Source: an uncultured delta proteobacterium
GTDB lineage: Bacteria; Desulfobacterota; Desulfobacteria; Desulfobacterales; B30-G6
Direction: 5' to 3'
Assembly: GCA_963823335.1 (NCBI GenBank)
Contig: CAWGLD010000001.1
Coordinates: 800,001 to 864,000, forward strand
Length of the DNA: 64,000 nt
Below are positions 10,359 through 31,005 of this stretch, piece after piece (within the stretch, counting starts at the first letter, position 1; every line of letters starts with the position of its first letter). The notes beneath the pieces are model-generated. The model did no database searches. It was not told the DNA's origin and saw nothing but the letters and a program-made list of their open reading frames with translations. A program made the position numbers and the translations under genes.

Positions 10359-10440
10359 GCGCTTCGGAAATCGGTGTTTGGGGATTGTTTCAACGGGTGT
10401 GGCTTGAGAAGGGAATTATTGCCTGTCAGTCCTCGAAACT

Positions 10441-10585: not shown

Positions 10586-10640
10586 TTTTGTCTACGATCC
10601 TCATACGGGTCGAAAGCTTCAGTAAAGCGACTTCCGATTC

Positions 10641-11405: not shown

Positions 11406-12383
11406 TCAACTTGCTCCATCATGTCTTCCAGTGCAGATTGGACCCGTTCGTCTTCATCCTCCCTCATGCTTAAAAAGAGGGAGAAGCGATCCACCACCCC
11501 CTTTTCCCCAAACAGCTGTCGGGGAATAACTCCAAATTTCAAGTTCACTGGCATTGGGTTCGGCAATATCCAGGATCATTACATCATCGTTAGTTTTAAC
11601 TTTTTTCCACCGGTTCCCTTCCAAGGCCAGCACCGGGTTTACCGGCTCCGCCAAATTGGAATAGTGCGCCAGAGCGGACAGGCCTGCTTTCACCCCAAAG
11701 GTCTTGTTGGAAAAGGTCTTTACCCATAATCTTTTTTTAACCGGGCTGCGCAGTCGTTCGAGCGCGGTTTCCCAAACCTGTTTCTTGTCCCGATTAAAAC
11801 GCAGAACCCGCTCACGGCCTTCCATGACGATTGTGCCCAGTCCCACGCCATCCAATTCATTCAATGCGCGGGTCATCGTCATGATGCTATAGCCAAGCGC
11901 ATTGGCCAACGCCTTTGGCGTTAAGCGACGTTGACCGTTTTGGGATAAATAATACAATACAACCACTTGAGTAGATGGGCTAAAGCTTGCCTCCGTTTCC
12001 CGGATGTTTTTGAAATGCTCGCGCAGATCGATGCCAAGAAATGGAAGATACATTTGGTTCAAAGGAACAATGAAAGGTATCTTATACTGGATTAGCCGCT
12101 TGCGATTATATGAGGTCACTTTCTGCTGTACATATATCACCTCATCTTGCCACTTTTTTCGGACTTGGAGCATATGCTTCTGGATTGTTGCAGGGGTTTG
12201 CTCTGCCCTGTCCTTGGCCGCCATTATCAGGCAGGGCAACCCTAAAATACATACTTCAAGAAAAACATACATATTCCGAAGGAATATCGGCAGAGTCTCC
12301 GGCCATTGTTTTGGTCGCACATCGATATCCAGTGTTTCTTTCAGATAGCGCTTAAAGTTGGTTACAAGCTGATCCATGATCAC
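11399..12383 (-). pseudogene. HTH-containing type IV antitoxin-like gene with a frameshift near 11518
   Basis: HTH LTPKALANALGYSIMTMTRALNEL; after EIWSYSP a +1 frame gives QLFGEKGVVDRFSLFLSMREDEDERVQSALEDMMEQVEW*, whose stop overlaps the next ATG. Confidence 0.65.
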
Positions 12384-15437: not shown

Positions 15438-15480
15438 TTGACATCTCTTCTGTCTGCGATATAGTTCATGCTATGAACCT
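15438..15480 (+). promoter_or_regulatory. sigma70 promoter plus palindromic operator over the marR start
   Basis: TTGACA-16 nt-TATAGT; TAGTT-catgctatg-AACCT spans the ATG; related TAGTT-N9-AACTA at 15967-15985. Confidence 0.6.
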
Positions 15481-15952
15481 TACAAGAGAAACCAATCGAA
15501 ATCGTGCGTCAGACAATCAAATCGTTCAGTTTCAGGGACTTATAACCAAATTGTTTCAGTGCTGCCAGGAACGACTGCAGTACCAGTGTGAGCGGTTCGA
15601 ACTTCCGGACGCCGAGCTGCGCTGTCTGTCGCTGTTTGGTGAAGAGCGCTACCTGACACCCAAAGGGATTGCTTTGAAGATGAATCTCGTCAAAAGCAGG
15701 ATATCCAAGATCGTTTCTGGTCTGGTCCGGAAAGAATTGATCCAAAAATTTTCCGATCCTGAAGACTCCCGGGTTACCTTGTTGAGCCTGACCGCTAAAG
15801 GTCAAAACAAACTTAATGATATCAATGGCTTTTTAAATGACATGCACCTGGAGGTCTTACGACAGATGGAACCGGAGCAGCGTAAAACCATGATTACCAA
15901 TCTCGAACTCTTGAAAGCCTCCATGGAGTCTGTCAAGGAGCTCATGGTTTAA
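15473..15952 (+). CDS. MarR-family transcriptional regulator
   Basis: wHTH LTPKGIALKMNLVKSRISKIVSGLV and DPEDSRVTLLSLTAKG; Cys residues (FQCCQ, YQC, LRC). Confidence 0.88.
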   Translation: MNLTRETNRNRASDNQIVQFQGLITKLFQCCQERLQYQCERFELPDAELRCLSLFGEERYLTPKGIALKMNLVKSRISKIVSGLVRKELIQKFSDPEDSRVTLLSLTAKGQNKLNDINGFLNDMHLEVLRQMEPEQRKTMITNLELLKASMESVKELMV

Positions 15953-15966
15953 ATTTTTTGTGCTTA

Positions 15967-15985
15967 TAGTTCTCAATAAGAACTA
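15967..15985. promoter_or_regulatory. Second putative MarR operator upstream of dsrE2
   Basis: TAGTTCT-caata-AGAACTA perfect 7-bp IR. Confidence 0.55.
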
Positions 15986-16065
15986 ATGTGCGAGGTTATT
16001 CTATTAACTATCTATTATTTAAATACAATTTTCGTTTATACTGCTAACAATTAAAGGAGGATAAC

Positions 16066-16611
16066 ATGTCGAACTTGGAAGAACAGGTTGCGCAGCTACA
16101 AGCCCAACTGGATGAAATGAAAAGCCAAACACCATCCAACAAGCTGGCCATGATCGTTTTCAGTGGTGACCTGGACAAGGCCCTGGCTGCCTTTATCATC
16201 GCCACCGGCGCCACAGCCATGGGTATGGAAGTGGTCATGTTTTTCACTTTCTGGGGGACCCCGATCCTGCGGGACAATAACAAAACCGTCGGTGGCAAGG
16301 ACACCATGGGTAAAATGTTCGGTGCCATGCTGCCAAAGGGTGCCGGAAAGGTCAAATTGTCCAAGATGAACATGGGTGGCATGGGAACCGCCATGATGAA
16401 ATCCCTGATGAAACAGAAAAACGTGGCCTCCTTGGAAGAGATGATTGCACTGGCGGAGGAGTTGGGGGTCAAAATCTACATTTGCGAAATGTCCATGGGC
16501 CTCATGGGATTCAAACGGGAGGAGATGATCGAATACGAAGGTGTCCAGTATGTCGGTGTGGCCACATTTCTGGCAGAGGCCGCGGACAGCAAAATTCAGC
16601 TGTTCCTGTAG
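16066..16611 (+). CDS. DsrE2/DsrE-DrsH-like sulfur carrier
   Basis: IVFSGDLDKA, FFTFWG, LSKMNMGGMG, ICEMSM active Cys, GVATFL. Confidence 0.9.
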   Translation: MSNLEEQVAQLQAQLDEMKSQTPSNKLAMIVFSGDLDKALAAFIIATGATAMGMEVVMFFTFWGTPILRDNNKTVGGKDTMGKMFGAMLPKGAGKVKLSKMNMGGMGTAMMKSLMKQKNVASLEEMIALAEELGVKIYICEMSMGLMGFKREEMIEYEGVQYVGVATFLAEAADSKIQLFL

Positions 16612-16714
16612 CGCAACCCAGAACCTGAGAGCGACATAACTATTTCCAATATACACGTAGAACAATCACCTATAAAATCAACCAATAGAACACGCACACA
16701 ACAGGAGGTATATC

Positions 16715-16957
16715 ATGAGCGATGACATTAAAGTCGATAAATCACTGGATCTGAAAGGGCTGGCCTGCCCCATGCCGGTCGTCAAAGTCAGCAAGGGTAT
16801 CAAAGAAGTTGAAATAGGTCAGGTTATTGAAGCCGTAACCACCGACCCGGGCTCTTTGACCGATTTTCCTGCCTGGGCAAAAACCAGTGGAAACGAGATT
16901 CTCAAGAGTGAACAGGACGGCAACGAAATTAAATTTTATATTAAACGCAAAAAATAG
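16715..16957 (+). CDS. tusA: TusA-family sulfurtransferase
   Basis: LDLKGLACPMP; TDPGSLTDFPAW. Confidence 0.93.
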   Translation: MSDDIKVDKSLDLKGLACPMPVVKVSKGIKEVEIGQVIEAVTTDPGSLTDFPAWAKTSGNEILKSEQDGNEIKFYIKRKK

Positions 16958-17041
16958 CCCTGCATCTGAATGTTAAATTTTAGGTGTCCAGCTTTACCGA
17001 CAACAACGACGCATGACGAGTTCTAATACATAGGAGGTGTC

Positions 17042-17752
17042 TTGCAAACAATTTTTTACATCATTCTGGTACCCATGGTTTATTTTGCCGCTGCTGTCTT
17101 CGCCCTGGGATCACTTGTCCGGATCATCAGGATTTTCAAGGCGCCCAAGCACCCCACCACACTTCAAATCTATCCTGAGCAAAAAGCCAAATGGCTTGGG
17201 GCCCTGTATGATACATTCTTTTTTCCAACCGTTCGAAAACACAAGCCGGTTTTATGGATATTTCTAATCCTGTTCCATGCCGGGCTGCTATTGCTCTTTA
17301 TCGGTCATCTTGAATTGATCTGGGATCTGAACATATTTCAGATAATACCCCATGAACCGTTTCTCGGCAAAGGCTTTGTAGGTTTGACACTGGCGGTATC
17401 ACTGCTTTTCTTCCTGTTTCGCCGGTTTTCTTCTCCTGTCCGGGAACTGTCGGTGCCGGAAGACTACTATCTGCTCATCCTGCTGTTTTTGATTGTCCTG
17501 TTTGGAAGCCAGATGGATTGGGCCAGAAGATGGTATGACTATGGTGAACTCTCCCTGGAAGACTATCGGGTCTACTTTATGAGCCTGGTGACATTCAGAC
17601 CGGAACTGCCCTACAATGCAACGTTTTCAGGCCATTCCTTTATGCTGATACTGCATGTTTTTCTTGCCAATCTGTTTCTCATTTTTTTCCCGTTCAGCCA
17701 GAGCATGCACGCCTTTTTATCGTTGCCGATAAACAAACTGCGGAGAGGTTAA
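17042..17752 (+). CDS. NarI/DsrM-like dihaem cytochrome b membrane subunit
   Basis: ~6 TM helices; His pairs LFHAG...IGH and ILHVF...SMH; GGAGG RBS with TTG start. Confidence 0.82.
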   Translation: MQTIFYIILVPMVYFAAAVFALGSLVRIIRIFKAPKHPTTLQIYPEQKAKWLGALYDTFFFPTVRKHKPVLWIFLILFHAGLLLLFIGHLELIWDLNIFQIIPHEPFLGKGFVGLTLAVSLLFFLFRRFSSPVRELSVPEDYYLLILLFLIVLFGSQMDWARRWYDYGELSLEDYRVYFMSLVTFRPELPYNATFSGHSFMLILHVFLANLFLIFFPFSQSMHAFLSLPINKLRRG

Positions 17753-17756
17753 ACCC

Positions 17757-19013
17757 ATGGACCAGAATACCCGAAACGACCTTTTAAAGCTTTTTAAAAG
17801 CAAGCTCAGTGAAGCCATGCGGCTTTACCTGGAAACATGCACCCGCTGTGGTGTCTGCACAGAAGCATGCCATGTTTACGCATCCACCGGACAGGTTAAG
17901 CACATCGCTGCCTACCGCGCTGAAATTATCCGCAGGCTATACAAAAAGTATTTCAAAGTCAGAGGAAAACTCTGGCCGTCTCTCAGCGAATCCAAGGAAT
18001 TGACCGATGTGGCGCTGGAGGAACTTTTTGAAGCGGCCTATTCCTGCACCGGCTGTCGGCGATGCATGGTCTATTGTCCCTTCGGTATCGACACTCAGAT
18101 GCTCATGTCCATTGCCAAGCTGCTGCTCATCGGTGCCAATACCGAGCCTGAAATCCTGACGCTATTGGCCGACACCTCCGTTGAAAAGGGCAAATCCATC
18201 GATCTTTTCAAGGAAGGGTTCCTCCAGGGCATTAAAAACCTGGAGAAAGACGTCGTCAAAAAATGGAAAGCGGAAGCCGGCGAAAGTGTTATTCCCGTCG
18301 ATGTCATGGGGGCCGACATCCTGTATGTCGCACTGGCAGGCGCCCATTCCATCATACCGGCCGCGGCCATTTTCAACGCTGCCGGAGAAAACTGGACTCT
18401 CAGTTTTTTCGAGGCTGTCAATTTCGGCGCCTTCGTGGGGGATCCCGGCAAAACCAAGCTCATACTGGATCGAATTATCAACGAGGCCCTGCGCCTCAAG
18501 GTCAAAGAAGTCTGCATCTGCGAATGCGGCACGGCCTTCCGGGTCATGAAACAGCTGTCTGGCAAACAGCCTTTCAAGGTATCTTCCATTACGGAAGTCC
18601 ATGCCCGCTATCTCAGGGAGGCTCGCATCAATATCGACCCGGCCAAATTCAATACTGCCATCACCTATCACGATCCCTGCCAGTTGGCACGCAATGCCGG
18701 TGTCATGGATGAACCCCGCTATATCCTGAGCCGGCTGACACAAGACTTCCGGGACATGTCTCCCGATCCGACATACAACTGGTGCTGCGGCGGCGGCGGC
18801 GGTCTGGTGGCACTGGGGGAGGAAACCATTGATTTTCGAATGAAATCGTCCCGCGTCAAAGCCGATCAGGTCAAAGAGACAGGGGCTGGAATTCTGGTTA
18901 CCGCCTGTGAAAACTGCCATTCCCAGTTGAGTGACCTGAACGACCACTACAAAATGAATGTGGAGGTGAAATTTCTATCCTCCATGATTGCGGACGCTTT
19001 GATACCAAAATAA
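17757..19013 (+). CDS. DsrK/HdrD-like Fe-S protein with CCG domain
   Basis: CTRCGVCTEAC, CTGCRRCMVYCP, YHDPC...CCGGGGG...ACENC. Confidence 0.88.
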   Translation: MDQNTRNDLLKLFKSKLSEAMRLYLETCTRCGVCTEACHVYASTGQVKHIAAYRAEIIRRLYKKYFKVRGKLWPSLSESKELTDVALEELFEAAYSCTGCRRCMVYCPFGIDTQMLMSIAKLLLIGANTEPEILTLLADTSVEKGKSIDLFKEGFLQGIKNLEKDVVKKWKAEAGESVIPVDVMGADILYVALAGAHSIIPAAAIFNAAGENWTLSFFEAVNFGAFVGDPGKTKLILDRIINEALRLKVKEVCICECGTAFRVMKQLSGKQPFKVSSITEVHARYLREARINIDPAKFNTAITYHDPCQLARNAGVMDEPRYILSRLTQDFRDMSPDPTYNWCCGGGGGLVALGEETIDFRMKSSRVKADQVKETGAGILVTACENCHSQLSDLNDHYKMNVEVKFLSSMIADALIPK

Positions 19014-19054
19014 AATCGTTCCACGATTTTATAAATCGCGACAGTGTCGCTCCT
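19010..19054 (+). repeat. REP-like family D copy
   Basis: ataaaatcgttccacgattttataaatcgcgacagtgtcgctcct; supplies the TAA stop of the upstream gene. Confidence 0.75.
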
Positions 19055-19102
19055 ACACTAGGACCGGGTGCCGAAATTAACTTACATAGAGGAGTTATTA
19101 AC

Positions 19103-20332
19103 ATGAGAAATTTAACCATCGTTATTGCTATATTTACCATTGTCGCCATGAGCGCCGGCGCAGCCTGGGCGACCAACGGCGACAACCTCATCGGTGTCGG
19201 CCCCATATCGAGATCCATGGGCGGTGTCGGTGTGGCCTCTCCCCAGGATTCCATCAGCGCCATATTCGCCAACCCGGCGGCCATGTGTTTCGGAGCCTAC
19301 TGTCCGGGGTCCGAGGCCACCTTTGCCGGAACCTTTTTTGATCCCAGCGTGGATGGGAAAGCCGATTACACAGCTTTTGGTCCGGGTTTCCCCGAAGGAG
19401 ATTCTGACAGCCAGATGGACCCGTTTGTGGTTCCGGCCATCGGCATCAGCACACCCCTGACCTCCCGTCTGCGATTTGGCATCGGTGCCTATGGCGTATC
19501 CGGTATGGGCGTCAACTACAAGGAAGAGGATATCCCGGTTGGGGATATGTACACCAAGCTGGAGGTCATGAAATTCGCTCCCAACCTGGCCTATCTGGTC
19601 ACGTCTGACTTCTCGGTGGGTGCGTCCCTGAGCGTCAGCTACCAGAATCTCGATCTGGGGTCCGGTGGCGCACACGGGTATGCCTACGGTGCACAGCTCG
19701 GGGCACTTTACCGTTTCAACATCTTCAATTTTGGTGTGTCCTACACCACCCCCCAGAAGGTGACCCATGAGAATGTTTTCGATTTTGACGGAAACGGCGA
19801 TTTTGACGATCTGGACCTCGAGGCACCCCAGACCCTGGCGTTCGGTGTGTCGGCCGAGCCCAACGATTCCCTGCTGGTGGAGTTCGACACCAAGTGGATC
19901 AACTGGTCGGATGCCGATGGGTACGAGGATTTCGACTGGGATGATCAGTGGGTATTTGCCGTAGGCGCGCAGTACAAGGTCACTCAGGACTTTTCTTTGA
20001 GAATCGGATACAACTACGGCAAGAACCCGGTCAATGAACACAACGGTTTCAGTCCTACGGGCAGCACCAATGTCCAGGGCACGGATGTCAGCAATGTGAA
20101 TTATGAAACCTTTCGCATAATCGGATTCCCGGCCATCATAGAACACCACCTGACGCTGGGTGCCGGATACAAATTTACCGACAAAATAGCCGTCAACATC
20201 TCCTATATGCACGGGTTTGAAGAAACCATTAAAGAAAAGTCTGATGGACTGCCCCCTGCTGGCGACGAAGTGAAGCTGGAGTCCACCATAAAAGAAGACT
20301 CGGTGAGTGTCGGCTTTACGGTTCAGTTTTAG
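19103..20332 (+). CDS. FadL/OmpP1/TodX-family outer-membrane transporter
   Basis: Signal peptide ending AWA, TNG...GPISRSMGG...NPA hatch motif, beta-barrel pattern, C-terminal Phe. Confidence 0.85.
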   Translation: MRNLTIVIAIFTIVAMSAGAAWATNGDNLIGVGPISRSMGGVGVASPQDSISAIFANPAAMCFGAYCPGSEATFAGTFFDPSVDGKADYTAFGPGFPEGDSDSQMDPFVVPAIGISTPLTSRLRFGIGAYGVSGMGVNYKEEDIPVGDMYTKLEVMKFAPNLAYLVTSDFSVGASLSVSYQNLDLGSGGAHGYAYGAQLGALYRFNIFNFGVSYTTPQKVTHENVFDFDGNGDFDDLDLEAPQTLAFGVSAEPNDSLLVEFDTKWINWSDADGYEDFDWDDQWVFAVGAQYKVTQDFSLRIGYNYGKNPVNEHNGFSPTGSTNVQGTDVSNVNYETFRIIGFPAIIEHHLTLGAGYKFTDKIAVNISYMHGFEETIKEKSDGLPPAGDEVKLESTIKEDSVSVGFTVQF

Positions 20333-20360
20333 TCCATAAAATTATTGAGTTCATGATGTC

Positions 20361-20395
20361 ATAGGGAAAGGCAGATTGCCTTTCCCTATTTTTTT
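20361..20395 (+). terminator. Intrinsic terminator
   Basis: atagggaaaggca-gat-tgcctttccctat followed by a T tract. Confidence 0.85.
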
Positions 20396-20666
20396 CTTGT
20401 TTCATTATTGATTTTCTGCAAGATTTCGTAGATGACCGCTTAACAACTCAACTTTCGGGATTCAGGAAACGCGAAATGAATCATCCCATTTCGCTCTATC
20501 TGTGGTGAAACCTTAAAGTTGAGTTAACAAGTTATAAACTGTTTTTTTATGGATATATTTCATTGGATGTGTTTGGCATTAACTATATCATAAAACCTAA
20601 AACCCAAAACTTAACACCAGATGATTTCGGTTTTTTTAGAAATCATCGATTTAATGAGGTGCACCC

Positions 20667-21809
20667 ATGTCCGTACAATCTTTCACCGCACAGGATTTGT
20701 TTGAATGGCTCGTTTCCAAAGAAACCTTTCTTCTGCTGGACGTCCGTAACGAGGAAGAGTTCGGCAGGTTTAAAGTGGAAGGGCCTTATCCCTTCGAGAT
20801 GGTCAATGTTCCCTACATGGAATTCATCGAGCATGAAGAAGAAAGTGTCGCAAAAGTGCCCAAGGGCAAAAAGCTGCGTATTGTCTGCGCCAAGGAAGGT
20901 TCTTCCAAATATGTGGGCGAGATCCTGGTCAATCATGGCCACACGGATGTGGCTCACCTGCTGGTGGGCATCAAAGCCTGGGGGAATCTACTGGCCCCCG
21001 TCCGTGTCGCCGCCGGGACCGGCTATGAACTGTATCAGTTCCGAAGGCCTGGAAAGGCATCCTGCAGCTATGGGTTGATTTGCGGAAAAGAAATGATGCT
21101 CTTTGATCCGGCAAAGAATATCACGGCCTATCAAGCCTTTGCAGACGAAAAAGGCTGTGCCATTACCAAGGCCTTTGAAACGCACAGACAGGCGGACTAC
21201 ATCTCCGGTGGCCCAATGCTTCAACAGACCCTGGGCGCGGAGATTCTCGTGCCTCCGGCCGATTTTCAAGGCGCAGCCATCGATTACACGCCGGTAAACG
21301 ACGGCGACCAGTTTCGTTTCACCAACGGCGGCCCGCTTGTCCAGGCCATCCACACACCTGGGCATACCCCCGGCAGCACCTCCTATCTCATCGACGACAA
21401 ATTTATTGTGTCCGGCGACACGATTTTCATTTTTAGCATGGGCAGGCCGGATCTGGGAGGCATGGCAAAAGCCTGGTCCAAGATGCTGTTTCAAACCATG
21501 ACCGAAAAGATCATGACCCTGGATGAGTCGATCCTGGTGCTGCCCGGTCACTACATGGATTGGAAAGAGGCCAACCAGGACCTTGTTTTTGCCGAGACGC
21601 TGGGGGCAATAAAAAAATTAAATGCCTCCATTTACGGCATCACCGATGAAAGCGAATTTTTCGATTTTATCCAGTCCAACATGCGGCCCCAGCCCGAAGA
21701 ATATGCCAAGATCCGTGACATCAACGCCGGCCTCGTTCAAGTCGATACCGAGGAAGCAGACACCATGGACCTGGGCAAAAACGAATGTGCCGCCAGCATG
21801 CATGCTTAA
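20667..21809 (+). CDS. Rhodanese + MBL-fold fusion (persulfide dioxygenase/CstB/YrkH-like)
   Basis: N-terminal LDVRNEEEF...VCAKEGSS rhodanese; ETHRQADY, HTPGHT, SGDT, GRPDLGG, PGH; C-terminal GKNECAA. Confidence 0.85.
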   Translation: MSVQSFTAQDLFEWLVSKETFLLLDVRNEEEFGRFKVEGPYPFEMVNVPYMEFIEHEEESVAKVPKGKKLRIVCAKEGSSKYVGEILVNHGHTDVAHLLVGIKAWGNLLAPVRVAAGTGYELYQFRRPGKASCSYGLICGKEMMLFDPAKNITAYQAFADEKGCAITKAFETHRQADYISGGPMLQQTLGAEILVPPADFQGAAIDYTPVNDGDQFRFTNGGPLVQAIHTPGHTPGSTSYLIDDKFIVSGDTIFIFSMGRPDLGGMAKAWSKMLFQTMTEKIMTLDESILVLPGHYMDWKEANQDLVFAETLGAIKKLNASIYGITDESEFFDFIQSNMRPQPEEYAKIRDINAGLVQVDTEEADTMDLGKNECAASMHA

Positions 21810-21933: not shown

Positions 21934-23208
21934 ATGGCTCAATTGATTCCCCCTCATGGTGGAAAAGGTCTGACCTGTTGCCTGCTTGAAGGCGCAGCGT
22001 TGGAGGCGGAAAAGACAAAAGCGGAAGGTCTCAAGAAAATCGAGATTTCTCCACGCGTAAAAGGTGATTTGATTATGATGGGTATCGGCGGTTTCAGCCC
22101 ACTCACCGGTTTTATGACCAAAGCCGACTGGAAAGGTGTCTGTGAAGATTATCTGCTGGCGGACGGCACTTTCTGGCCGATTCCCGTCACCATGGATGCC
22201 TCCAAAGAAGATGCGGATGCCATCAACATCGGCGATGAGATTGCCCTGTACGATCCCGAAGGGGACGAAATCATGGCAACCATGAAGGTCACCGAGAAAT
22301 TTGAGATGTCCGAGGCAGACAAGACCTTTGAATGTGAAAAATGCTATATGGGTGAAGGAACCCCTACGGCAGCGGATTTCTGGAAAATTGCCAAGGAAGA
22401 CCACCCCGGTGTCCAGATGGTCATGGACCAAAAAGCGGTCAATCTGGCAGGGCCGGTCAAGGTGTTGAGTGAAGCCGAATACCCCACCCGCTACAAGGGT
22501 GTCTACGTGCGTCCCGAAGAGTCCCGCAAGATGTTCGAAGAAAGAGGATGGAGTGACGTCGCTGCCCTGCAGCTGCGAAATCCCATGCATCGGTCCCATG
22601 AATATCTATGCAAGATCGCTGTTGAAGTCTGTGACGGTGTCTACATTCATTCCCTGGTGGGCAATCTGAAACCCGGCGACATTCCGGCGTCGGTCCGTGT
22701 CAAATGTATCGATGCCCTCGTGAAGAATTATTTTGTCGAAAAGAATGTCATTCAGGGTGGTTATCCTCTGGACATGCGCTATGCCGGTCCGAGAGAAGGC
22801 TTGCTCCATGCCACGTTCCGCCAGAACTACGGATGTTCCCGCATGATTATCGGACGCGATCATGCCGGCGTGGGCGATTTTTACGGCATGTTCGAAGCAC
22901 AGACCATTTTTGACAAGATTCCGACACCCGCGGAACCCGGAAAAGCACTTCTTTGTACACCGCTCAAAATCGACTGGACCTTCTATTGTTTCAAATGCGA
23001 CGGTATGGCTTCCCTGAGAACCTGCCCGCATGCCAAGGAAGATCGTGTACTGCTCTCTGGAACCATGCTGAGAAAAATGCTTTCCGAGGGCCAGGAACTG
23101 CCGGATCACTTCGGCCGTGACGAAGTTGTGGCAATCCTCAGAGAATACTACGAAGGATTGGACGAAAAGGTCGAGATCAAAACTCATAAGGCCGCAACCG
23201 GCAATTAA
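21934..23208 (+). CDS. sat: Sulfate adenylyltransferase (dissimilatory)
   Basis: [45 protein letters not shown], Zn CxxC. Confidence 0.98.
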
Positions 23209-23301: not shown

Positions 23302-23427
23302 AATTGTATCTATGTTTAATTTATATTGAAAACAATCACAGCAGCTAACTTGAAAATCTCTTTCCTGTTACTGTCATGTTTTTAGCGGCGCAGCCGCCAA
23401 GTCGAAAATACAACCGCGTTAGCGGTT

Positions 23428-24561
23428 TTATTTTCGACCTATGTACTCGTTATAAGCCATGGCCGTGGTTCGATACACCAGGTGGGCCAGTTTGGAGTAT
23501 GGAATGAAAAAGAAAAGACTCCAGATAAACATTAAGTGGACATAATATACCGTATAGGAAATTCCTGCCAGGCCCAACAGACGAGCCACCTGGGTTCCCA
23601 TACCCGTGACACCCAGCGCCAAAGCCCATCCCACCAGCCACCAGTCTTTGTAAGCCGACACCTGATCTTTCTTGGACAGTCGGCTGCGGATCATCAGAAG
23701 ACTGCCGATGATCAAGGCCACGCCACTTACATTGGCAAGCCACTTGACCGGGTTCAACTGAGAATAGGGCCCATATAGCTGCAGTCCGTATATGGCCACA
23801 AAGAAAATGTTGGTCACGATAAACAGACCGACAAATCCAAACAAGACCATCATGTGCGCTGTGGCGCGGTCCTTGTTTTCACTGCACTCGTTGAATTTGT
23901 CATGCTTTATAATGGCCGGGATCACTCGGATCAATCCCATAATCATGCCTTTGGGATCAATTTTTTCGATATCGGTTTTGCCTTCCTGTAACGCATTCTG
24001 GTGCATATCATTCAGAAAACGCTTCAAACCCAGCGCAAAATTGATAACCGCCCAGGCGGCCGCTGGCAGCATCACCATGTCCACCAGCCAGGTGGAGAAA
24101 AAGTGATCATGAACAATCCTGTCTCCACCCGGATTAAAATTGAGAAAACCGGTGGCAAGTCCCAGCACCAGAAACAGGAGGGCTGGAATGCCTAGAACAA
24201 TCGGCAGTTTTTTGGGATCATTGATGAGCTTGCCTATGGCCTTTACCGGTCCGTACTCGGTAACCGCATAGGCCCGAATCGCCCCCAGCACATCCCCTGG
24301 TTTCGCTCCACGGGGACAAAGGGTGGTGCAATCCCCGCAGTTGTGGCAAAGCCATATATCGCCATTGCCCACCAGTTTTTCTTTAAGCCCCCAGGATGCT
24401 GCAATCATCTCTTTTCTGGGAAACGGTTTGTTGTCTGGTGATATCGGGCAAGCAACCGAGCAGGTTGCACATTGAAAACATTTTTTCAGATCTCCGCCGC
24501 CAAGCCCTTTAACCTCATTTATAAAGCTTATATCAGGCTCAATAACATATGCATCCGCCAT
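23428..24561 (-). CDS. qmoC: Quinone-interacting membrane-bound oxidoreductase subunit C
   Basis: CFQCATCSVAC and CHNCGDCTTLC HdrC-like domain plus TM cytochrome b domain (SKLAH); GAGGAGG RBS before MADAY. Confidence 0.95.
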   Translation of the reverse strand: MADAYVIEPDISFINEVKGLGGGDLKKCFQCATCSVACPISPDNKPFPRKEMIAASWGLKEKLVGNGDIWLCHNCGDCTTLCPRGAKPGDVLGAIRAYAVTEYGPVKAIGKLINDPKKLPIVLGIPALLFLVLGLATGFLNFNPGGDRIVHDHFFSTWLVDMVMLPAAAWAVINFALGLKRFLNDMHQNALQEGKTDIEKIDPKGMIMGLIRVIPAIIKHDKFNECSENKDRATAHMMVLFGFVGLFIVTNIFFVAIYGLQLYGPYSQLNPVKWLANVSGVALIIGSLLMIRSRLSKKDQVSAYKDWWLVGWALALGVTGMGTQVARLLGLAGISYTVYYVHLMFIWSLFFFIPYSKLAHLVYRTTAMAYNEYIGRK

Positions 24562-24625
24562 ATGAGTTCCTCCTCTTTGGATGACGTGTTCACGTTCCCT
24601 ATTCATCGAACGCAAAGAATCCAGG

Positions 24626-26962
24626 TTAAAAGCCCTTGAACGGGTTCGGGCCAAGATCTTGGATCAACTCTGCAAAATCATTCACGATCTGTGGTAACTT
24701 GTCGTATTCATCGATGGCTATCTGGAACTGCGCGACACGTTCATTCTCCAGAGCCAGACTCGACAGAGCTTCACCGATCTTCTTCATGCGGACTTCCGCC
24801 AGTTCGCTTCCCTTGACAAAATGGCACTGATAATCATCACCATGTTTGCACCCGAGCAGGAAAACACCGTCCATACCCTGTGACAGGGCATCTTTGATCC
24901 AGATAACATTTACAGACCCCAAACAGCGAACCGGGATAAATCGAACTTCTGCGGAATAGGGCATCCTGTTGAGCCCGACGATATCCAGGGCCGGGTAGGC
25001 ATCGTTTTCACAGACAAGCCCCAATATACGCATGGGGGGTTCGTCGTAATCATCTTCGGATGGCACCTGAATGGATTTGACCATGGAGCCGACACTGTCG
25101 ATGTTGTAATCGGCAAAACCGATGATCCGCTCCGGACAGGCTCCCATGCAGGTACCACAGCGCCGGCAACGGGTCGGGTTCGGTTTGGGGGTTCCCTTTT
25201 CATCATCATCCAGGGCGCCAAAAGGACACTCCTCGGTACAGCGCTTGCACTGGGTGCAACGCTGAAAGAAAAAATCCGGAAAGGTCATGTCCCCCGATCT
25301 CGGATGAACGGAAACACCCCTGTTGGCCGAATCAATGCACTGAATCGCCTTTAAGGCCGCTCCCGAAGCATCTTCAATTGACTCTTCCACGGTGAGCGCA
25401 CGCCGTATGCCACCGGCCGCATAAATACCCGTCCGCTGGGTCTCATACGGGAAACAAATAAAGTTGGAATCCGCATAGGCCTGGAATAAGGCATTGTCCC
25501 TGAACCCCGGTCCCTGGCGATATGCTAGATTGACCACCGGGTCGTCTTTGGTTACCGGTACCATACCGGTGCCGAGTACGACCATGTCTGCCTTGACCTG
25601 TACTTTTTTCCCCAGGAGGGTATTTTCGGCCTCGACAATCAGGCCGTCGCCGTTTTTAGAAACCTTCGTCACCTCTCCCTTTGTCATGAAAATACCCGGA
25701 TCCTGCTGCAGGCTCTTGTAGAAATTCTCGCTCAGACCAGGCGTGCGCATGTGCTGATAAAAAAGAAACGCTTTTCCTTCGGGAAAATCTTCCCGGACGT
25801 ATTTGGCTTGCTTGAGCGCCACCAGGCTTGTGACCGATCCTGCATATTCGAAATCGCTGTCATCGTCGCCGGCCCCCGGACTCTGGACAAAAACCACCGA
25901 CGAGGCTTCCTTGCCATCCGAAGGTCTGACGATTTTACCCTTTTTGGCAATCTCTTCAAACTCGGTGTTGGTCACGACATCCGGCAGTTCTCCATACCCC
26001 AGGTGGGAAAACTCACCCGCCTTGGGTTTATAGGGCCGCCAGCCAGCTGCCAGGATTACGGCACCAAAAGCTTCCCCGTTTGGATCGAACTTGAGGATAT
26101 CGTTCTTGCCCACATTGTACTCCATGAATTTTTCATGCAGCTGCTCAGCATTCAGCTCCTTACCGCTGTCATCCACTTTCATCTCGTCCGGAAGCGGATA
26201 GGGAACATCGAATTCCATTTTTTCACCCGGCTTTTTCAAGGTGACGATAAAATTTCCCGGCTCTCCGGCAATTCGGGCAGCCACTGTCTCCGTCTTAACG
26301 GTGATGTTCGACATGGACGCCACTTCCTGTATCATCTGCGCCACAACCGGCGGGATCAACTGTTCGTATGGGCTTTTCAGCGGCAGTTGTTTACGCCAGT
26401 TATTGGCGTTGCCCCCCAATATTCCTTGTTTTTCGACAATGGTGACCTCGTATCCGGTCTTGGCCGCATCGAGAGCCGCCGACATGCCGGTGACACCCCC
26501 CCCGATCACCAGGATTTTACGACTGAAATTGTCCAGCTTGTAGGGCTCCGGCAGGTTGATTTTTTCAACTTTCGCCATCCCCATGCGGATGTAGTCCTGG
26601 GCCAGCATCTCCAGACGGTCGAAGTGCTCTTCGTCTCCTTTTTGATCTTCGGTCAATGCCGGGAATTCGGAACGGGGATGAGACCAGACCACCTGTTCCC
26701 GTAAATTCACACGGTCCACAATACAGCCGTCAAATCGGAACACGTCAAAATTAACCCGCCGCGAACATGCTGCGATAACGAGCGTATTGGTACCTTCCTC
26801 GATATCCTTCTTGAGAAGGGCAACACCGTCTTTGCCGCAAAGGATGGGGTGCGTTTTTACCGGAACGCCCTCTTCCTCTGGGATTTCACACAGTGCTTTC
26901 ATGTCCAGGGCATCACCGATGCCACAGCCTTCACATATATACACACCATACTTTTTATCCAT
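24626..26962 (-). CDS. qmoB: QmoB (HdrA-like plus MvhD domain)
   Basis: GGGVTG FAD motif, two ferredoxin CxxCxxCxxxC, CENDAYPA...RCLGS...GCKHG..YQCHF. Confidence 0.96.
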   Translation of the reverse strand: MDKKYGVYICEGCGIGDALDMKALCEIPEEEGVPVKTHPILCGKDGVALLKKDIEEGTNTLVIAACSRRVNFDVFRFDGCIVDRVNLREQVVWSHPRSEFPALTEDQKGDEEHFDRLEMLAQDYIRMGMAKVEKINLPEPYKLDNFSRKILVIGGGVTGMSAALDAAKTGYEVTIVEKQGILGGNANNWRKQLPLKSPYEQLIPPVVAQMIQEVASMSNITVKTETVAARIAGEPGNFIVTLKKPGEKMEFDVPYPLPDEMKVDDSGKELNAEQLHEKFMEYNVGKNDILKFDPNGEAFGAVILAAGWRPYKPKAGEFSHLGYGELPDVVTNTEFEEIAKKGKIVRPSDGKEASSVVFVQSPGAGDDDSDFEYAGSVTSLVALKQAKYVREDFPEGKAFLFYQHMRTPGLSENFYKSLQQDPGIFMTKGEVTKVSKNGDGLIVEAENTLLGKKVQVKADMVVLGTGMVPVTKDDPVVNLAYRQGPGFRDNALFQAYADSNFICFPYETQRTGIYAAGGIRRALTVEESIEDASGAALKAIQCIDSANRGVSVHPRSGDMTFPDFFFQRCTQCKRCTEECPFGALDDDEKGTPKPNPTRCRRCGTCMGACPERIIGFADYNIDSVGSMVKSIQVPSEDDYDEPPMRILGLVCENDAYPALDIVGLNRMPYSAEVRFIPVRCLGSVNVIWIKDALSQGMDGVFLLGCKHGDDYQCHFVKGSELAEVRMKKIGEALSSLALENERVAQFQIAIDEYDKLPQIVNDFAELIQDLGPNPFKGF

Positions 26963-26972
26963 GGATACCCTC

Positions 26973-28250
26973 CTACCTGTTCACCAGCGTTTGAATCGCT
27001 TTCAAAGCCATTCCGGTTGCATTCTGATTCGATGAAACAACGTCCGCCGGTTTGTTGGCACAACCGGCTGCAAACATGCCGCCTTTTTCGAAGTCGTTGA
27101 TGATAAATCCGTCTTCGGTATATGTTAACTCGGCAGGAAGCTTTGCATTGGCCGCAGTCGGTTGCATTCCGGTGGCCAGGACCGCCATCTCAACCGTTTG
27201 GTGAATCTTCTCGCCGGTTACCGCATTCTCTGCAACCACGGTGATGTTTTTGGTTTTTGGATCTTCACTGACCTCGGCAACTTTGCCTTTGACAAAAAAG
27301 ACATTTTCATCTTCTTTTATACGCTTGTAAAATTTTTCATACCGGTAGCCCGGGGCCCTGAGATCGATATAGAAAATGTATATCTTGGCGTCTGGATATC
27401 TTTCCCGGATATAGGTGGCATGTTTTAGAGAAGCCATGCAGCATATATAAGAACAATAAGGGAGATGATTTTCATCCCGCGACCCTGCGCACTGGACAAA
27501 GGCGATGCTCTCGATATCTTTTTTGTCGGACGGGCGTTGAATGGTTCCCTTTGTGGGTCCGTTGGGGGAGGCCAGTCGCTCGAGCATCATATTGGTAATC
27601 ACATTCTCATATTGGCCAAAGCCTAGATTGTCGATTTTGGATGCATCGTAGGGCTCCCATCCAGTGGCCCAGACCAGTGCACCAACCTTCAGGTTCACTG
27701 TGTTGGCTTCCATCTCTAGATCGATGGCATCGTACTTACAGGCTTCTTTACACCGCACGGCATCATCGGTGCCGATGATTCGGGGTGACAGGACATACCG
27801 GGCAGGAAACGCCATTTCAAAGGGCTGATAGGCCGCTTTGATCTGCTTCATACCCAAATCAAAATCACTGTCAATTTCTGTTTCACAGACCGCTGCGCAG
27901 TCACCACAACAGGTGCAGTTTTCATTCACATAGCGGGGTGCCAACTTGATCGAAACATCGTAGTTTCCAGGGGTTCCGGTCACTTTTTCTACTTCGGCAA
28001 GTGTAAAAACCTTGATTTTGGGGTTGTCCTTGATCCGCCGAAAATTGATTTCCAGACCACAGGAAGGTGGGCACAGCTTGGGAAAATATTGATTGAGCTG
28101 CGATACTCTTCCGCCTAAGTATGGATTTTTTTCGACCAGGAACACTTCGTACCCCACTTCGGCGGCCTCTATGGCTGTGGTCAGCCCACTGATACCGCCA
28201 CCCACGACCATGATACTTTCACTAGCAGGGGCTCCTCTGTCTTCTGTCAT
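26973..28250 (-). CDS. qmoA: QmoA (HdrA-like flavoprotein)
   Basis: VVGGGISG, YFPKLCPPSCGLEIN, QCAGSRD, CSYICC. Confidence 0.96.
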   Translation of the reverse strand: MTEDRGAPASESIMVVGGGISGLTTAIEAAEVGYEVFLVEKNPYLGGRVSQLNQYFPKLCPPSCGLEINFRRIKDNPKIKVFTLAEVEKVTGTPGNYDVSIKLAPRYVNENCTCCGDCAAVCETEIDSDFDLGMKQIKAAYQPFEMAFPARYVLSPRIIGTDDAVRCKEACKYDAIDLEMEANTVNLKVGALVWATGWEPYDASKIDNLGFGQYENVITNMMLERLASPNGPTKGTIQRPSDKKDIESIAFVQCAGSRDENHLPYCSYICCMASLKHATYIRERYPDAKIYIFYIDLRAPGYRYEKFYKRIKEDENVFFVKGKVAEVSEDPKTKNITVVAENAVTGEKIHQTVEMAVLATGMQPTAANAKLPAELTYTEDGFIINDFEKGGMFAAGCANKPADVVSSNQNATGMALKAIQTLVNR

Positions 28251-28453
28251 GCTATCCCTCCGTACAATAGTGGTTTCTGATTGACTTAAACATGTCTTTA
28301 CGGCTTCAGATGATATCCTATTTGAAAAGAATAAATAACGCCTGGAATAAATTCGTTATTAAAAAAGCGAGGATATCGCTCCTGTCGATGACTCCAGCCG
28401 TTAGTTGCTGTCTTCAAAACGTTGGATATCACCTGAGACCAAGGGACCTTAAT

Positions 28454-28490
28454 AAAAACCTCCAGGCATCTCGCGACACCTGGAGGTTTG
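28454..28490 (-). terminator. Hairpin/terminator between aprA and qmoA
   Basis: aaacctccagg...cctggaggttt followed by ttatt on the minus strand. Confidence 0.6.
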
Positions 28491-28521
28491 CATTTTAAAC
28501 TAACTCACAATTGGCATGTAA

Positions 28522-30501
28522 TTAATCAGGAATGATCTGGACGTAATCTCTCTTGAACACATCCCATTCTCCTGATTTTGGATCGAATTTGGAATTGACA
28601 AATGCGAACCAGTTTTCATCATCCTGGCCAGGATAATCCGCCTGATAATAGAACCCAGGATAACGGGTTTCTTTCCTGAACTGGATGTGGCGCAGGTGGG
28701 ACTCCACCGTCCAGATACGGTGATAGATTTCCCAGCAGCGCATAAGCTCATGAAGATCCCCGGCAGCCAGACTTTCACAGTCTTCACGCATCACCTGGAG
28801 CAATTCCATGATGACTTCGAGATTCTTGCTGGTGGTCAGGTAGTAGGTCGCCGTTCCACCACCATACTCGTGGGTGGCTTTCATGAGTCTCAAGGCCATC
28901 CCGGAAGGCTTGATATAAGCCGGGTTGACATCTTCCATGGTGGTGTACTTGTAGTTGTCCAGATAGGTTCTGACAGGTTTGTACACCAGATCGACCAGTT
29001 CCTGATTTGACTGTGCCAATGTCGGGCTAAAATCCGCATGGTCTTTTGCATACCTTACGCATTGCTTGACAGCCATACGACCTTCGGCATGGGAACCGGA
29101 AGAGAACTTGTGCCCTGATCCGCCAACACCATCACCGGAGGTAAAAAGACCGTTGACGGTGGTCATGCGGTTGTAAATTTTACCGTTGTCGGCCTTGATT
29201 TTATAAGAATCCGGTACCCAGTCATAATCCGGTCCCGATGTCCAGAGACCGCAGCAGCCTGAGTGGGATCCCAGCAGATAGGGTTCCGTCGGCATAACTT
29301 CGGAATTCTTCTTTTCCGGCTCGGTGTTTGTAGCACACCAGAGGTTGGCCTGACCACAGGTCATGTCAAGGAAGTCTTCCCAGGCTTCTGATTCGAGATG
29401 CCGGAGTTCCTTCTTGTCCATGGTTTTCCCAAGCTCCGCCAGAGCAGACACGGTATCCATGATAATGGGTCCGCGGCCTTCTTTCATTTCGAACAGCATC
29501 AGATGGTTCCGCAGACAGGTCGGTGTAATGGCAGCGGTTCCATAAGGCGCATATTTCTCGAGCTCTGCCTTGGCGGCATCACTTGCGGCAAAGTTTTCGC
29601 CAAGACCGTTCAGTGTTTTGGCTTTGAAAAGCAGGAACCAGGCGCCAACAGGGCCATATCCGTCTTTAAAACGAGCCGGGGTGAAACGGTTTTCCATCAT
29701 GGTTAGCTCGGCGCCGACTTTCATACACATGGTGTAGGTGGAGCCCGCATTCCAGACCGGATACCATGCACGGCCTTTGCCTTCGCCCACAGATCGCGGC
29801 TGATAGATATTGACCGCACCACCACAGGCAACCATCATGGTTTTACATTTAATAATATAAACTTTGTTCTCGCGAACGGAGAAACCTACTGCACCGGCGA
29901 TCTGATTTTCTTTGTTGGCGTCCAGCAGAAGCTCAACGATAAAGCAGCGCTCGAGGACGTTGTCATCACCAATGGCTTTTTTTGCGGCTTCAGCAACGAT
30001 CCGCTTGTAAGATTCACCATTGATCATGATCTGCCATTTTCCGGTACGAACAGGACTGGCACCGCCTTTCAGCGAACCCATTTTCAGGCCTTTTTTACCA
30101 TCCAGGTTTTTGCCTTCTTCTGTCTTCTTCCAGACCGGCAATCCCCATTCCTCAAACAAATGAACCGAGTCATCCACGTGACAACCCAGATCAAAGATCA
30201 GGTCTTCACGAACGATTCCCATAAGGTCGTTGCGGACCATGCGGACATAATCATCCGGTGAATTATCGCCAATATAGGTGTTGATGGCTGACAGGCCCTG
30301 TGCAACGGCGCCACTTCTCTCCATGGCTGCCTTGTCGCACAACAGTACGGTCTGATCGTCACCCAACCATTTTTTAACTTCGAATGCCGAGCCGCAAGCC
30401 GCCATACCACCACCGACGATCAAAACGTCGACTTCTCGCTCTTCAATTTCGGGATCTCTGATAGCCTTGAGCTCTCCCATTGGTTTGTTCGGTAATGCCA
30501 T
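28522..30501 (-). CDS. aprA: Adenylylsulfate reductase alpha subunit
   Basis: ERSGAVAQGLSAINTY, WQIMINGESYK, RFKDGYGPVG, HKFSSGS. Confidence 0.99.
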   Translation of the reverse strand: MALPNKPMGELKAIRDPEIEEREVDVLIVGGGMAACGSAFEVKKWLGDDQTVLLCDKAAMERSGAVAQGLSAINTYIGDNSPDDYVRMVRNDLMGIVREDLIFDLGCHVDDSVHLFEEWGLPVWKKTEEGKNLDGKKGLKMGSLKGGASPVRTGKWQIMINGESYKRIVAEAAKKAIGDDNVLERCFIVELLLDANKENQIAGAVGFSVRENKVYIIKCKTMMVACGGAVNIYQPRSVGEGKGRAWYPVWNAGSTYTMCMKVGAELTMMENRFTPARFKDGYGPVGAWFLLFKAKTLNGLGENFAASDAAKAELEKYAPYGTAAITPTCLRNHLMLFEMKEGRGPIIMDTVSALAELGKTMDKKELRHLESEAWEDFLDMTCGQANLWCATNTEPEKKNSEVMPTEPYLLGSHSGCCGLWTSGPDYDWVPDSYKIKADNGKIYNRMTTVNGLFTSGDGVGGSGHKFSSGSHAEGRMAVKQCVRYAKDHADFSPTLAQSNQELVDLVYKPVRTYLDNYKYTTMEDVNPAYIKPSGMALRLMKATHEYGGGTATYYLTTSKNLEVIMELLQVMREDCESLAAGDLHELMRCWEIYHRIWTVESHLRHIQFRKETRYPGFYYQADYPGQDDENWFAFVNSKFDPKSGEWDVFKRDYVQIIPD

Positions 30502-30567
30502 ATTGTATCCTCCTTAACTAAATTTTCCTATTTGATTGGTTACGAATGCGTTAACATCAAACAACGG

Positions 30568-31005
30568 TTAGACCGTCGCCTGGGGTGTCGGCATGACATA
30601 CCCGTCGGCTTCCTCAGTTGAAAGAAATTCACTTTCAATGTCCTTGCCTTTCAGACCAGAATATTCATTGGCAGCACCTTCCGGGGTTGTCCGGATGGGG
30701 AACTTGAAGCGCTTGATGGTTCCGTTTCTGAACTTGCATGTCCACATGACATCCTCGGTACCCAGCATCGGCATTACACTGCTTCCCAATGGCACGAAAT
30801 CGGAGTAACCCCTCACCTCAATTGCCTGGGTGGGGCAGATCTTCACACATGAAAAACATTCCCAGCACTGATCCGGCTCTTGATTGTAAGCCTTCATTTC
30901 ATTGGGCTCTAGAACCATAAGGTCATTGGGACAAATATACATACATGCGGTTTTGTCCCCGCCTTTACAGCCATCACATTTTTCGTTAATTACAAAACTT
31001 GGCAT
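30568..31005 (-). CDS. aprB: Adenylylsulfate reductase beta subunit
   Basis: CDGCKGGDKTACMYICP, CWECFSCVKIC, KRFKFPIRTT. Confidence 0.99.
   Translation of the reverse strand: MPSFVINEKCDGCKGGDKTACMYICPNDLMVLEPNEMKAYNQEPDQCWECFSCVKICPTQAIEVRGYSDFVPLGSSVMPMLGTEDVMWTCKFRNGTIKRFKFPIRTTPEGAANEYSGLKGKDIESEFLSTEEADGYVMPTPQATV

Follow-up and report, generated by a model that had tools for sequence, protein, structure and literature searches.

A predicted operon joining a MarR regulator, the sulfur carriers DsrE2 and TusA, a DsrMK-like pair and a FadL-type channel in an uncultured member of the Desulfobacterota

DsrMK, the core of DsrMKJOP, combines a NarI-type dihaem cytochrome b with a cytoplasmic subunit that carries two [4Fe-4S] motifs and one CCG motif, and is described as reducing the DsrC trisulfide with menaquinol (PMC10504309). 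Sets in which TusA accompanies a PF13686-type carrier beside an Hdr-type redox enzyme are known as Rhd-TusA-DsrE2 in Allochromatium vinosum and as the sHdr-associated TusA/DsrE3/DsrE2 (PMC4175335, PMC11094781), and both TusA and DsrE-type proteins bear persulfide or thiosulfonate on homologous cysteines (PMC13293266, PMC4175335). In Desulfobacterota, TusA-centred import and relay has been described for the YTD cluster (YeeE/YedE-TusA-DsrEFH type II), which occurs in disproportionators and cable bacteria (PMC13293266). Channels of the FadL/TodX/TbuX type have in common a 14-strand fold, a hatch and an NPA motif, and for a FadL-family protein of Chlorobaculum tepidum (the CT2230 hypothesis), belonging to a sulfide-repressed regulon, a role in the passage of hydrophobic sulfur chains has been suggested (bioRxiv 10.1101/172254). 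Here we describe a gene cluster, marR-dsrE2-tusA-dsrM'-dsrK'-fadL, that brings members of these families together at positions 15473-20332 of a stretch of 64,000 nucleotides (hereafter the window; positions 800,001 to 864,000 of contig CAWGLD010000001.1, assembly GCA_963823335.1). The host is an uncultured delta proteobacterium of the B30-G6 lineage, a sulfate reducer with dsrAB elsewhere in its genome, which is 93.9% complete.

All parts of this cassette belong to known families, and public records name them generically or misleadingly. Compared with DsrMK, however, the products DsrM' and DsrK' score below the DsrM and DsrK equivalog cut-offs and fall outside the DsrK clade, DsrM' has 236 amino acids whereas the host's own DsrM has 355, and the pair is linked to tusA and dsrE2, in some genomes with neither dsrA nor aprA detected. 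TmcBC and HmcEF share the superfamily and similar subunit sizes with the pair, and among NCBIfam models TmcC matches DsrM' best, but DsrM'K' has no cytochrome c partner genes, forms a separate clade and occurs in a host with TmcB-like and HmcF-like copies of its own. Unlike the Rhd-TusA-DsrE2 and sHdr sets, the cassette has a DsrE2 that is soluble and DsrE2B-like rather than a membrane DsrE2A, a quinone-linked DsrMK-like pair as partner instead of DsrEFH/DsrC or sHdrABC-LbpA, anaerobic Desulfobacterota as hosts and a MarR regulator. In contrast to YTD, no YedE was found in the host genome and no chp1/chp2 (DsrF/H type II) is present in the operon, the candidate point of entry lies in the outer membrane (FadL) and not in the inner membrane (YeeE), and the cassette possesses its own redox enzyme. 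The channel differs in turn from FadL, TodX and TbuX as a divergent subfamily with a CX4C motif after NPA and a genetic tie to DsrE2-family carriers. No description of a marR-dsrE2-tusA-dsrMK-like(-fadL) cluster was met in the literature searched, whose coverage leaves out figures and supplements. A preliminary description of this DNA, made from the letters alone, did not recognise the combination of FadL without YedE and dsrJOP as a described system. New here are the association of the FadL-like channel with DsrE2, the operon boundaries, the candidate operators and the clade placement of DsrK', as well as the identification of a neighbouring gene with a published Rho-PDO type and the finding that the link to sat-apr-qmo is local.

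Gene content, conservation and family placement of the cassette

Open reading frame listing, translation, and Pfam and NCBIfam scans bore out the seven co-oriented plus-strand genes of the preliminary description, which had treated them as one unit extending over 15473-21809. The unit is smaller than that: marR-dsrE2-tusA-dsrM'-dsrK'-fadL, at 15473-20332, is predicted to be one operon, with a promoter before it and a terminator after it. The sigma-70-like promoter TTGACA-16-TATAGT (15438..15465, plus strand) agrees with the consensus at 11/12 positions and ends 7 nt before the marR ATG, and an intrinsic terminator (20361..20389, plus strand) with a 13-bp stem and a T run closes the operon after fadL. 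Since this strong terminator follows fadL, the rhodanese-MBL gene and sat farther downstream would be separate transcription units. All six genes of the operon are on the plus strand.

The gene dsrM' (17042..17752; PF02665, 53.5 bits) is predicted to encode a NarI-type membrane cytochrome b with about five transmembrane helices, as judged by eye. Its likely haem ligands, His79/His89 and His205/His223, are conserved in 65-68 of 68 sequences, at spacings of 10 and 18 residues that presumably fit NarI, and the protein scores far under the cut-offs of both TmcC and DsrM (DsrM 36.1 versus 300 bits). Only 4 nt downstream, dsrK' (17757..19013) is predicted to encode a cytoplasmic catalytic subunit of the HdrD/DsrK family (418 amino acids; Pfam Fer4_8 and CCG), for which the best NCBIfam match was DsrK with 262.1 bits against a cut-off of 400. 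DsrK' contains two CX2CX2CX3C motifs, one CxCxC and one full CCG motif (C308...CC343/344...C384xxC387), and all 16 cysteines are conserved in 75/75 sequences. The family is tight: among 1.84 billion cluster representatives one was 78% identical and the next 47%, and a search of solved structures revealed no close relative of DsrK', the sole match being to the CCG region of 9OJN.

The phylogenetic analysis, a tree of 63 rows built by a quick method with NCBIfam labels on 55 full-length representatives, grouped DsrK' of the window with those of five loci and with three representatives (SH-aLRT 99) in a single clade, which takes part in an unresolved three-way split with the HmcF/TmcB clade and the clade of all bona fide DsrK. 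The host's own DsrK, TmcB-like and HmcF-like paralogues fall in those other clades, and because DsrK' is separated from them, its sequence identifies it as a third branch of the DsrK/HmcF/TmcB family and not a DsrK. A basal DsrMK-only clade, which may or may not be the DsrK' clade, is described in Deltaproteobacteria that also have DsrMKJOP (PMC10504309).

The host genome (G000) carries a canonical dsrM-K-(J)-O-P cluster at G000:C1:1065635-1070669, where DsrM, DsrK, DsrO and DsrP score 535, 727, 318 and 492 bits, respectively. The absence of YedE and dsrJOP asserted in the preliminary description stands for the former, PF04143 not being found in the 93.9% complete genome, but for the latter it is restricted to this locus. 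Neither dsrJOP nor dsrC nor dsrAB was noted in the cassette loci, though none of these was among the queries used. Two further paralogues of the DsrK/HdrD family in the host, at G000 C1:948718-949740 and C1:1682178-1683176, contain one in-frame TGA each and may be selenoproteins; many DsrK/HdrD paralogues of 33-34% identity elsewhere in the phylum also show in-frame TGA.

A search with DsrK' of contigs from one genome per species returned 218 related stretches, and the locus counts given here use the best 80 of them, in which DsrK' is 76-95% identical to that of the window. These loci belong to metagenome-assembled genomes of Desulfobacterota type, some filed under other phylum labels, and to Desulfacinum infernum DSM 9756 (L063), a cultured organism in which fadL accompanies the cassette. 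The results showed that marR, dsrE2, tusA and dsrM' precede dsrK' in the same orientation in 56 of the 60 loci that extend 2.7 kb or more upstream, and in the four exceptions one or another of marR, dsrE2 and tusA escaped detection. This five-gene arrangement is far beyond chance. The genes therefore co-occur elsewhere, a point on which the preliminary description had made its proposal depend, and its view of the carriers and the DsrMK-like pair as a dedicated module is strengthened by this synteny together with the separate clade and the host's own canonical cluster, which set the conserved module apart from DsrMKJOP.

Median identity to the window was 80% for DsrK', 81% for TusA (74 loci), 72% for DsrE2, 70% for DsrM', 65% for MarR and 49% for FadL, DsrK' and TusA thus being the best-conserved parts, and the flanks outside the core vary from lineage to lineage. 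Orthologues of DsrK' at 56-64% identity still accompany dsrE2 and tusA, one of them in permuted order, and relatives at 50-54% identity are found as M-K only. The permuted order, marR-dsrE2-dsrM'-tusA-dsrK', was observed with a 64%-identical orthologue at L095 (G399:C12, 3968-7656). In a close relative of the window (L003, about 5300-12000, and G410:C29:78994-83455), dsrE2-tusA-dsrM'-dsrK' is duplicated in tandem before fadL, the two DsrK' copies being 95% identical and about 3 kb apart.

Within a sample of 401 genomes of the phylum, a DsrK' orthologue of at least 50% identity was found in 23, host included. The cassette orthologue is present in 11/14 genomes of the host family and 7/9 of the host genus, and the cassette was found in four of the 16 other families of the host's order. 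A first sample had yielded none among 13 same-order genomes, which prompted the idea of horizontal transfer into the host genome; the 11/14 same-family genomes ruled it out. The gene dsrA occurs in 203/401 sampled genomes, that is, in 17/23 of those bearing the cassette (16/22 without the host) and 186/378 of the others. Among the six cassette genomes without dsrA, aprA was likewise not found in four of five checked, and G360 has aprA. The four with neither gene found (G328, G276, G138 and G286) are 93-100% complete, and G328 and G276 hold the full five-gene core. Because of these four genomes, the module is independent of the dissimilatory sulfate-reduction pathway, and the earlier suggestion that it feeds sat-apr-qmo is unsupported in view of 4/22 other cassette genomes and of the position of sat, which is adjacent in 6/80 loci, all close relatives.

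In addition, the RNA libraries of 4/4 estuary runs, which stem from no more than three samples and studies, yielded contigs of at least 95% identity in 29-30 of the 30 bins between 13100 and 31100 of the window. Some of them bridge dsrE2-tusA (16371-17027) and dsrE2-tusA-dsrM' (16593-17162), and further ones fall within dsrM', fadL and the Rho-PDO gene. The operon is present in environmental RNA libraries, which is weak as evidence of transcription, as DNA carry-over is possible, and their depth cannot rank the genes.

Sulfur carriers, regulator and channel

The gene dsrE2 (16066..16611; PF13686, 184.8 bits) is predicted to encode a soluble DsrE2B-like carrier with an amphipathic N-terminal extension and an invariant single cysteine, Cys140, found in 57/57 sequences. 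Its NCBIfam score of 92.3 bits lies under the DsrE2 equivalog cut-off of 210, and among solved structures it is closest to the soluble 3PNX (E 3.5e-32) and to 2QS7, a DsrE2B structure. The two transmembrane helices and two conserved cysteines that mark the DsrE2A type are lacking, with no hydrophobic N-terminal helices by eye, one conserved cysteine and a score below the equivalog cut-off. The genome scan revealed that this is the sole PF13686 gene of the host. TusA (16715..16957; PF01206, 79.4 bits versus a cut-off of 28.6) has Cys18 in a CPMP motif in 45/45 sequences, and the host genome encodes two TusA domains; a search for long proteins containing the cassette TusA gave one TusA-only protein of 142 amino acids and no informative fusion. 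Elsewhere in the host, a DsrE-family open reading frame of 120 amino acids (G000:C5:227833-228138; PF02635, 47 bits) includes one in-frame TGA and may encode a selenocysteine-containing protein. An abundant 'DsrE' is reported in a study of Desulfococcus multivorans.

In the product of marR (15473..15952; PF01047, E 1.6e-7), Cys30 and Cys31 are conserved in 61/62 sequences and Cys51 in 58/62. MarR-family proteins sense sulfane sulfur via cysteines (PMC11211675), a precedent for derepression through persulfidation or polysulfide bridging of those cysteines, and the winged helix and conserved cysteines of such regulators are found here as well. Two candidate operators were recognized by eye, since repeats of this kind were not listed by automated repeat finding with its minimum length of 10. 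The 16-nt palindrome AGTTCATGCTATGAAC (15463..15478, plus strand) shares bases with the -10 box and with the start codon of marR, a position consistent with autoregulation, and the inverted repeat TAGTTCT-caata-AGAACTA (15967..15985, plus strand), perfect over 7 nt in the marR/dsrE2 intergenic region, may be a second operator. The pattern AGTTC-N6-GAAC occurs at the marR start in about 28/61 loci as compared to 3.5% of 240-nt background windows, and a looser operator pattern matches the marR/dsrE2 intergenic region in 11/61 loci.

The gene fadL (19103..20332) is predicted to encode an outer-membrane channel of the FadL/TodX family. Its membership is indicated by PF03349 (98.8 bits versus a cut-off of 29.7), the NPA motif, a signal-like N-terminus (by eye) and the predicted fold: an AlphaFold2 model (pLDDT 87.1) gave as top Foldseek matches TodX 3BS0 (E 1.8e-23, TM 0.68) and FadL 1T1L, followed by TbuX and CymD, with TM 0.66-0.69. 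In the NPA hatch motif, N and A are conserved in 34/34 sequences and P in 33/34; right after it stands the CX4C motif (NPAAMCFGAYCP), whose cysteines are found in 28 and 27 of 34 sequences and are absent from the most distant ones. In the genome scan, the operon fadL scored 48 and 40 bits, and a separate canonical FadL scored 247 bits.

Among the 66 loci with room for it, fadL directly follows dsrK' in 27, and this adjacency is scattered over the DsrK' tree with 13 changes, at least five of them forced by well-supported branches. A FadL-like gene was found elsewhere in none of four core-bearing genomes that lack an adjacent copy. FadL-like relatives occur in 25/401 genomes of the phylum sample. 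Copies of at least 49% identity are carried by 14 genomes besides the host, and in nine of these the copy immediately adjoins dsrK'. Non-adjacent copies at this identity in G199 and G347 fit contig breaks, that of G138 lies on another contig, and G260, G244 and G208 are without DsrK'. In G260 (L087) the arrangement is marR-dsrE2-fadL with no tusA, dsrM' or dsrK'; a fadL and DsrE_2 pair stands amid housekeeping genes in G104 and G311 (L089, L094) and probably in G244/L088 (tblastn only); and in L034 and L058 fadL is followed by a signal-peptide CPPC thioredoxin gene and then by a second DsrE2-like gene. A 30%-identical FadL gene with a thioredoxin-like gene lies divergent from marR in G279 (L096). 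In G082, about 3 kb from dsrE2-tusA, an ArsR-like gene, fadL and a large open reading frame are found, the last joining an FAD-dehydrogenase-like part to a CCG part (ArsR-like gene and domain parts by eye). These data give good evidence, by guilt by association, that the subfamily works with DsrE2-type carriers, and the link of FadL to the module made in the preliminary description is upheld by its place inside the operon, the 27/66 loci, the lack of stray copies in four genomes and the pairing with DsrE2-family genes in four other arrangements. With respect to the core, the channel is accessory and not required. In G169:C53:194056-195283 and G384:C3:28717-29759, the FadL-like gene next to the cassette gives a match split in two and may be frameshifted or decaying.

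Proposed function and rival explanations

Access to nearly insoluble elemental sulfur, and the handling or use of zero-valent sulfur by sulfate reducers, are open questions of the sulfur cycle, which the candidate markers YTD, truncated AprB, DsrE2 and rhodaneses have not settled (PMC12998232). The operon is a compact, testable candidate in this regard, in which sensor and channel are combined with two carriers and an enzyme linked to quinone, and the cassette is widespread (218 stretches; 23/401 genomes), highly conserved and present in environmental RNA libraries. We tentatively propose, with a probability of about 0.45, that a sulfane-sulfur-sensing MarR controls the uptake of hydrophobic S0 and the quinol-linked reduction of TusA/DsrE2-bound sulfur, every step of this mechanism being drawn from gene content and conservation. 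Sulfane sulfur would modify Cys30/Cys31/Cys51 of MarR and lift repression at the palindromes over the promoter. The FadL-type channel, with CX4C beside its NPA hatch motif, would then admit hydrophobic sulfur species, either S8 or organic/inorganic polysulfane, to the envelope, where in some lineages a signal-peptide-bearing and likely periplasmic thioredoxin may help entry. Sulfur reaching the cytoplasm would be captured as persulfide by DsrE2 (Cys140) and TusA (Cys18), carriers with a single cysteine each, possibly with a hetero-di- or trisulfide bridge between them, equivalent to a DsrC split over two proteins. In the turnover step, the dihaem cytochrome b DsrM' would mediate electron transfer linking menaquinol with DsrK', the subunit with the CCG cluster, and DsrK' would reductively free H2S and restore the carrier thiols, analogous to the action of DsrMK on the DsrC trisulfide. 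We favour the reductive direction, serving detoxification or S0 respiration, over the oxidative one at roughly 60:40. The module would function independently, and its place next to Rho-PDO and sat is peculiar to this lineage. If the proposal is true, metagenomic inference of sulfur reduction, detoxification and disproportionation in marine and estuarine Desulfobacterota needs revision, and a third functional branch joins the DsrK/HmcF/TmcB enzyme family.

Several observations weigh against this proposal. Electron transfer from menaquinol to S0/H2S is uphill at standard potentials, so the reductive direction needs a favourable carrier-bound potential or the proton-motive force. Outer-membrane uptake is not needed for the core, since 39/66 loci have no adjacent fadL and 4/4 such genomes are without any FadL-like gene. 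The ATGAAC half of the palindrome doubles as the coding start of marR (Met-Asn), and for this reason only the upstream half is independent evidence of an operator; the MarR cysteines could equally sense peroxides or quinones. An archaeal DsrE2B showed in vitro neither reaction with six sulfur compounds nor TusA binding (PMC4175335). Lastly, a related dsrE2-tusA pair (47-49% identity) follows iscS- and iscU-like open reading frames (by eye) in L091/G082, a neighbourhood that points to biosynthetic sulfur trafficking.

The last of these observations agrees with a housekeeping role, in which TusA and DsrE2 would take sulfur from a cysteine desulfurase for cofactor synthesis or tRNA thiolation, and DsrM'K' would use membrane quinol to keep the carriers reduced or to free sulfide for Fe-S assembly. 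Biosynthetic roles of TusA are described in E. coli (PMC4175335) and the cassette occurs in genomes where no dissimilatory sulfur genes were found, but control by a MarR repressor with cysteines implies that expression is inducible, the cassette is patchily distributed (23/401 phylum genomes; 4/16 other families of the order), and a recurrent outer-membrane channel with signal-peptide thioredoxins misfits a cytoplasmic biosynthetic relay, so that we regard this role as unlikely. The same channel, beside which signal-peptide thioredoxins are encoded, could serve the import of an organic thiol, disulfide or polysulfide, the dialkyl polysulfides of sulfidic sediment being one example, and the carriers and DsrK' would cleave the S-S bonds of the imported compound. 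HdrD-type CCG enzymes reduce small-molecule heterodisulfides, and FadL channels carry hydrophobic organics according to the titles of the matched solved structures. Such a substrate is nevertheless very unlikely, as no gene of carbon-skeleton metabolism is conserved near the cassette and as TusA and DsrE are known from PMC13293266, PMC4175335 and PMC11094781 only as carriers of inorganic sulfane or thiosulfonate. Even less credit is due to a FadL-like gene that is a fatty-acid or hydrocarbon transporter placed downstream by chance, an alternative raised in the preliminary description by the ADP-forming acyl-CoA ligase upstream of the operon (13191-15341). This is largely refuted by synteny: the ligase recurs in 0/80 loci, the host has its separate canonical FadL (247 bits), fadL sits between dsrK' and the terminator, five arrangements connect the subfamily with DsrE2-family genes, and none of the four genomes without a cassette copy was found to have one at another place. 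Such surroundings speak for a cargo other than long-chain fatty acids or aromatics.

A reading closer to the proposed reduction of carrier-bound sulfur retains the same parts and reverses the flow: imported S0 would be loaded on TusA/DsrE2, DsrM'K' would oxidise the carriers to the trisulfide with electrons passing to menaquinone, and the sulfur would proceed via DsrC/DsrAB, or via Rho-PDO to sulfite and then AprAB-Sat, as an entry to oxidation or disproportionation. Thermodynamically, quinone is readily reduced by sulfide-level sulfur. In the host genome and family, the operon adjoins Rho-PDO, sat and qmo-apr, qmo-like genes stand upstream in L045 and L054 and an AprBA-like pair in L070, dsrA is found in 17/23 cassette genomes against 186/378 others, and in relatives a conversion of polysulfide to sulfite has been proposed for Rho-PDO (PMC13047784). 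On the other hand, G328, G276, G138 and G286 carry the cassette with neither dsrA nor aprA found, the operon contains no DsrC or DsrEFH gene, and a terminator parts it from Rho-PDO and sat. Rho-PDO is adjacent in 8/80 loci (six close relatives and two with the gene divergent upstream) and sat in the 6/80 already mentioned, and Rho-PDO orthologues, present in 11/401 genomes of the phylum sample, occur in 0/22 other cassette-bearing genomes. The inclusion of the rhodanese-MBL gene in the module, as earlier proposed, is not sustained by these counts, the gene co-occurring with DsrK' in this genome only within that sample; Rho-PDO and sat are lineage-specific neighbours of the cassette. We consider the oxidative flow rather unlikely. 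Decidedly unlikely, in our estimate, is a far-reaching extension of the proposed uptake and reduction, in which the CX4C-bearing FadL-like channel would give anaerobes a route for solid-phase S8 across the outer membrane, the first to be defined genetically, delivering to DsrE2/TusA for a Dsr-independent, quinone-coupled respiration by DsrM'K'. Together with Rho-PDO/Sat/Apr/Qmo, it would amount in the host family to complete S0 disproportionation without DsrAB or YTD: Rho-PDO, Apr and Sat would yield sulfate and ATP, and DsrM'K' would put the electrons on a second S0.

Neighbouring genes and minor observations

Downstream of the terminator, the gene at 20667..21809 (plus strand) is predicted from Pfam and NCBIfam matches to encode a fusion of an N-terminal rhodanese domain with a PDO-like MBL domain. 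The rhodanese domain contains Cys74, and the motif T-H-R-Q-A-D-Y is conserved in 7/7 sequences. The MBL domain is of the persulfide-dioxygenase type, with 3TP9, 3R2U, 9RHQ and ETHE1 4CHL as best solved relatives, and keeps the His/His/Asp positions aligned to residues that we take to be the iron ligands of ETHE1. An inactive pseudo-enzyme with a degenerate HxHxDH motif was considered and ruled out, as the ETHE1 alignment and PMC13047784 show the metal triad to be kept. The same source describes an HXQADY Rho-PDO fusion, so far uncharacterised, in cable bacteria and Desulfobulbales and proposes that it forms sulfite from polysulfide. Rhodanese, PDO-like MBL and H-R-Q-A-D-Y are common to both proteins with nothing substantial different, and by its sequence the rhodanese-MBL protein of the window is a member of this already described HXQADY-type Rho-PDO. 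Its C-terminal tail has a cysteine, Cys374 (GKNECAAS, residues 370-380), conserved in 7/7 sequences and resembling a swinging-arm cysteine.

The Rho-PDO gene is followed by sat, identified by Pfam and NCBIfam as sulfate adenylyltransferase (21934..23208, plus strand), and convergent with it are qmoC, qmoB, qmoA, aprA and aprB (23428..31005, minus strand), with a bidirectional terminator between sat and qmoC (23412-23427). In the Syntrophobacteraceae loci L045 and L054, marR is immediately preceded, in the same orientation, by genes resembling qmoB and qmoC (45% and 25% identity), and upstream of the cassette of L070 stands a divergent pair with distant similarity to AprBA (44% and 31% identity); these are a second and a third lineage in which the cassette abuts genes of the adenosine-5'-phosphosulfate-reduction type. 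Upstream in the window, a HypF carbamoyltransferase (2783-5119) and a [NiFe]/[NiFeSe] hydrogenase large subunit (6010-7452), whose open reading frame begins at profile position 33, are encoded on the minus strand, as is a protein of 309 amino acids (11454-12383) with weak MarR-type matches only (E about 5e-4) and no NCBIfam match.

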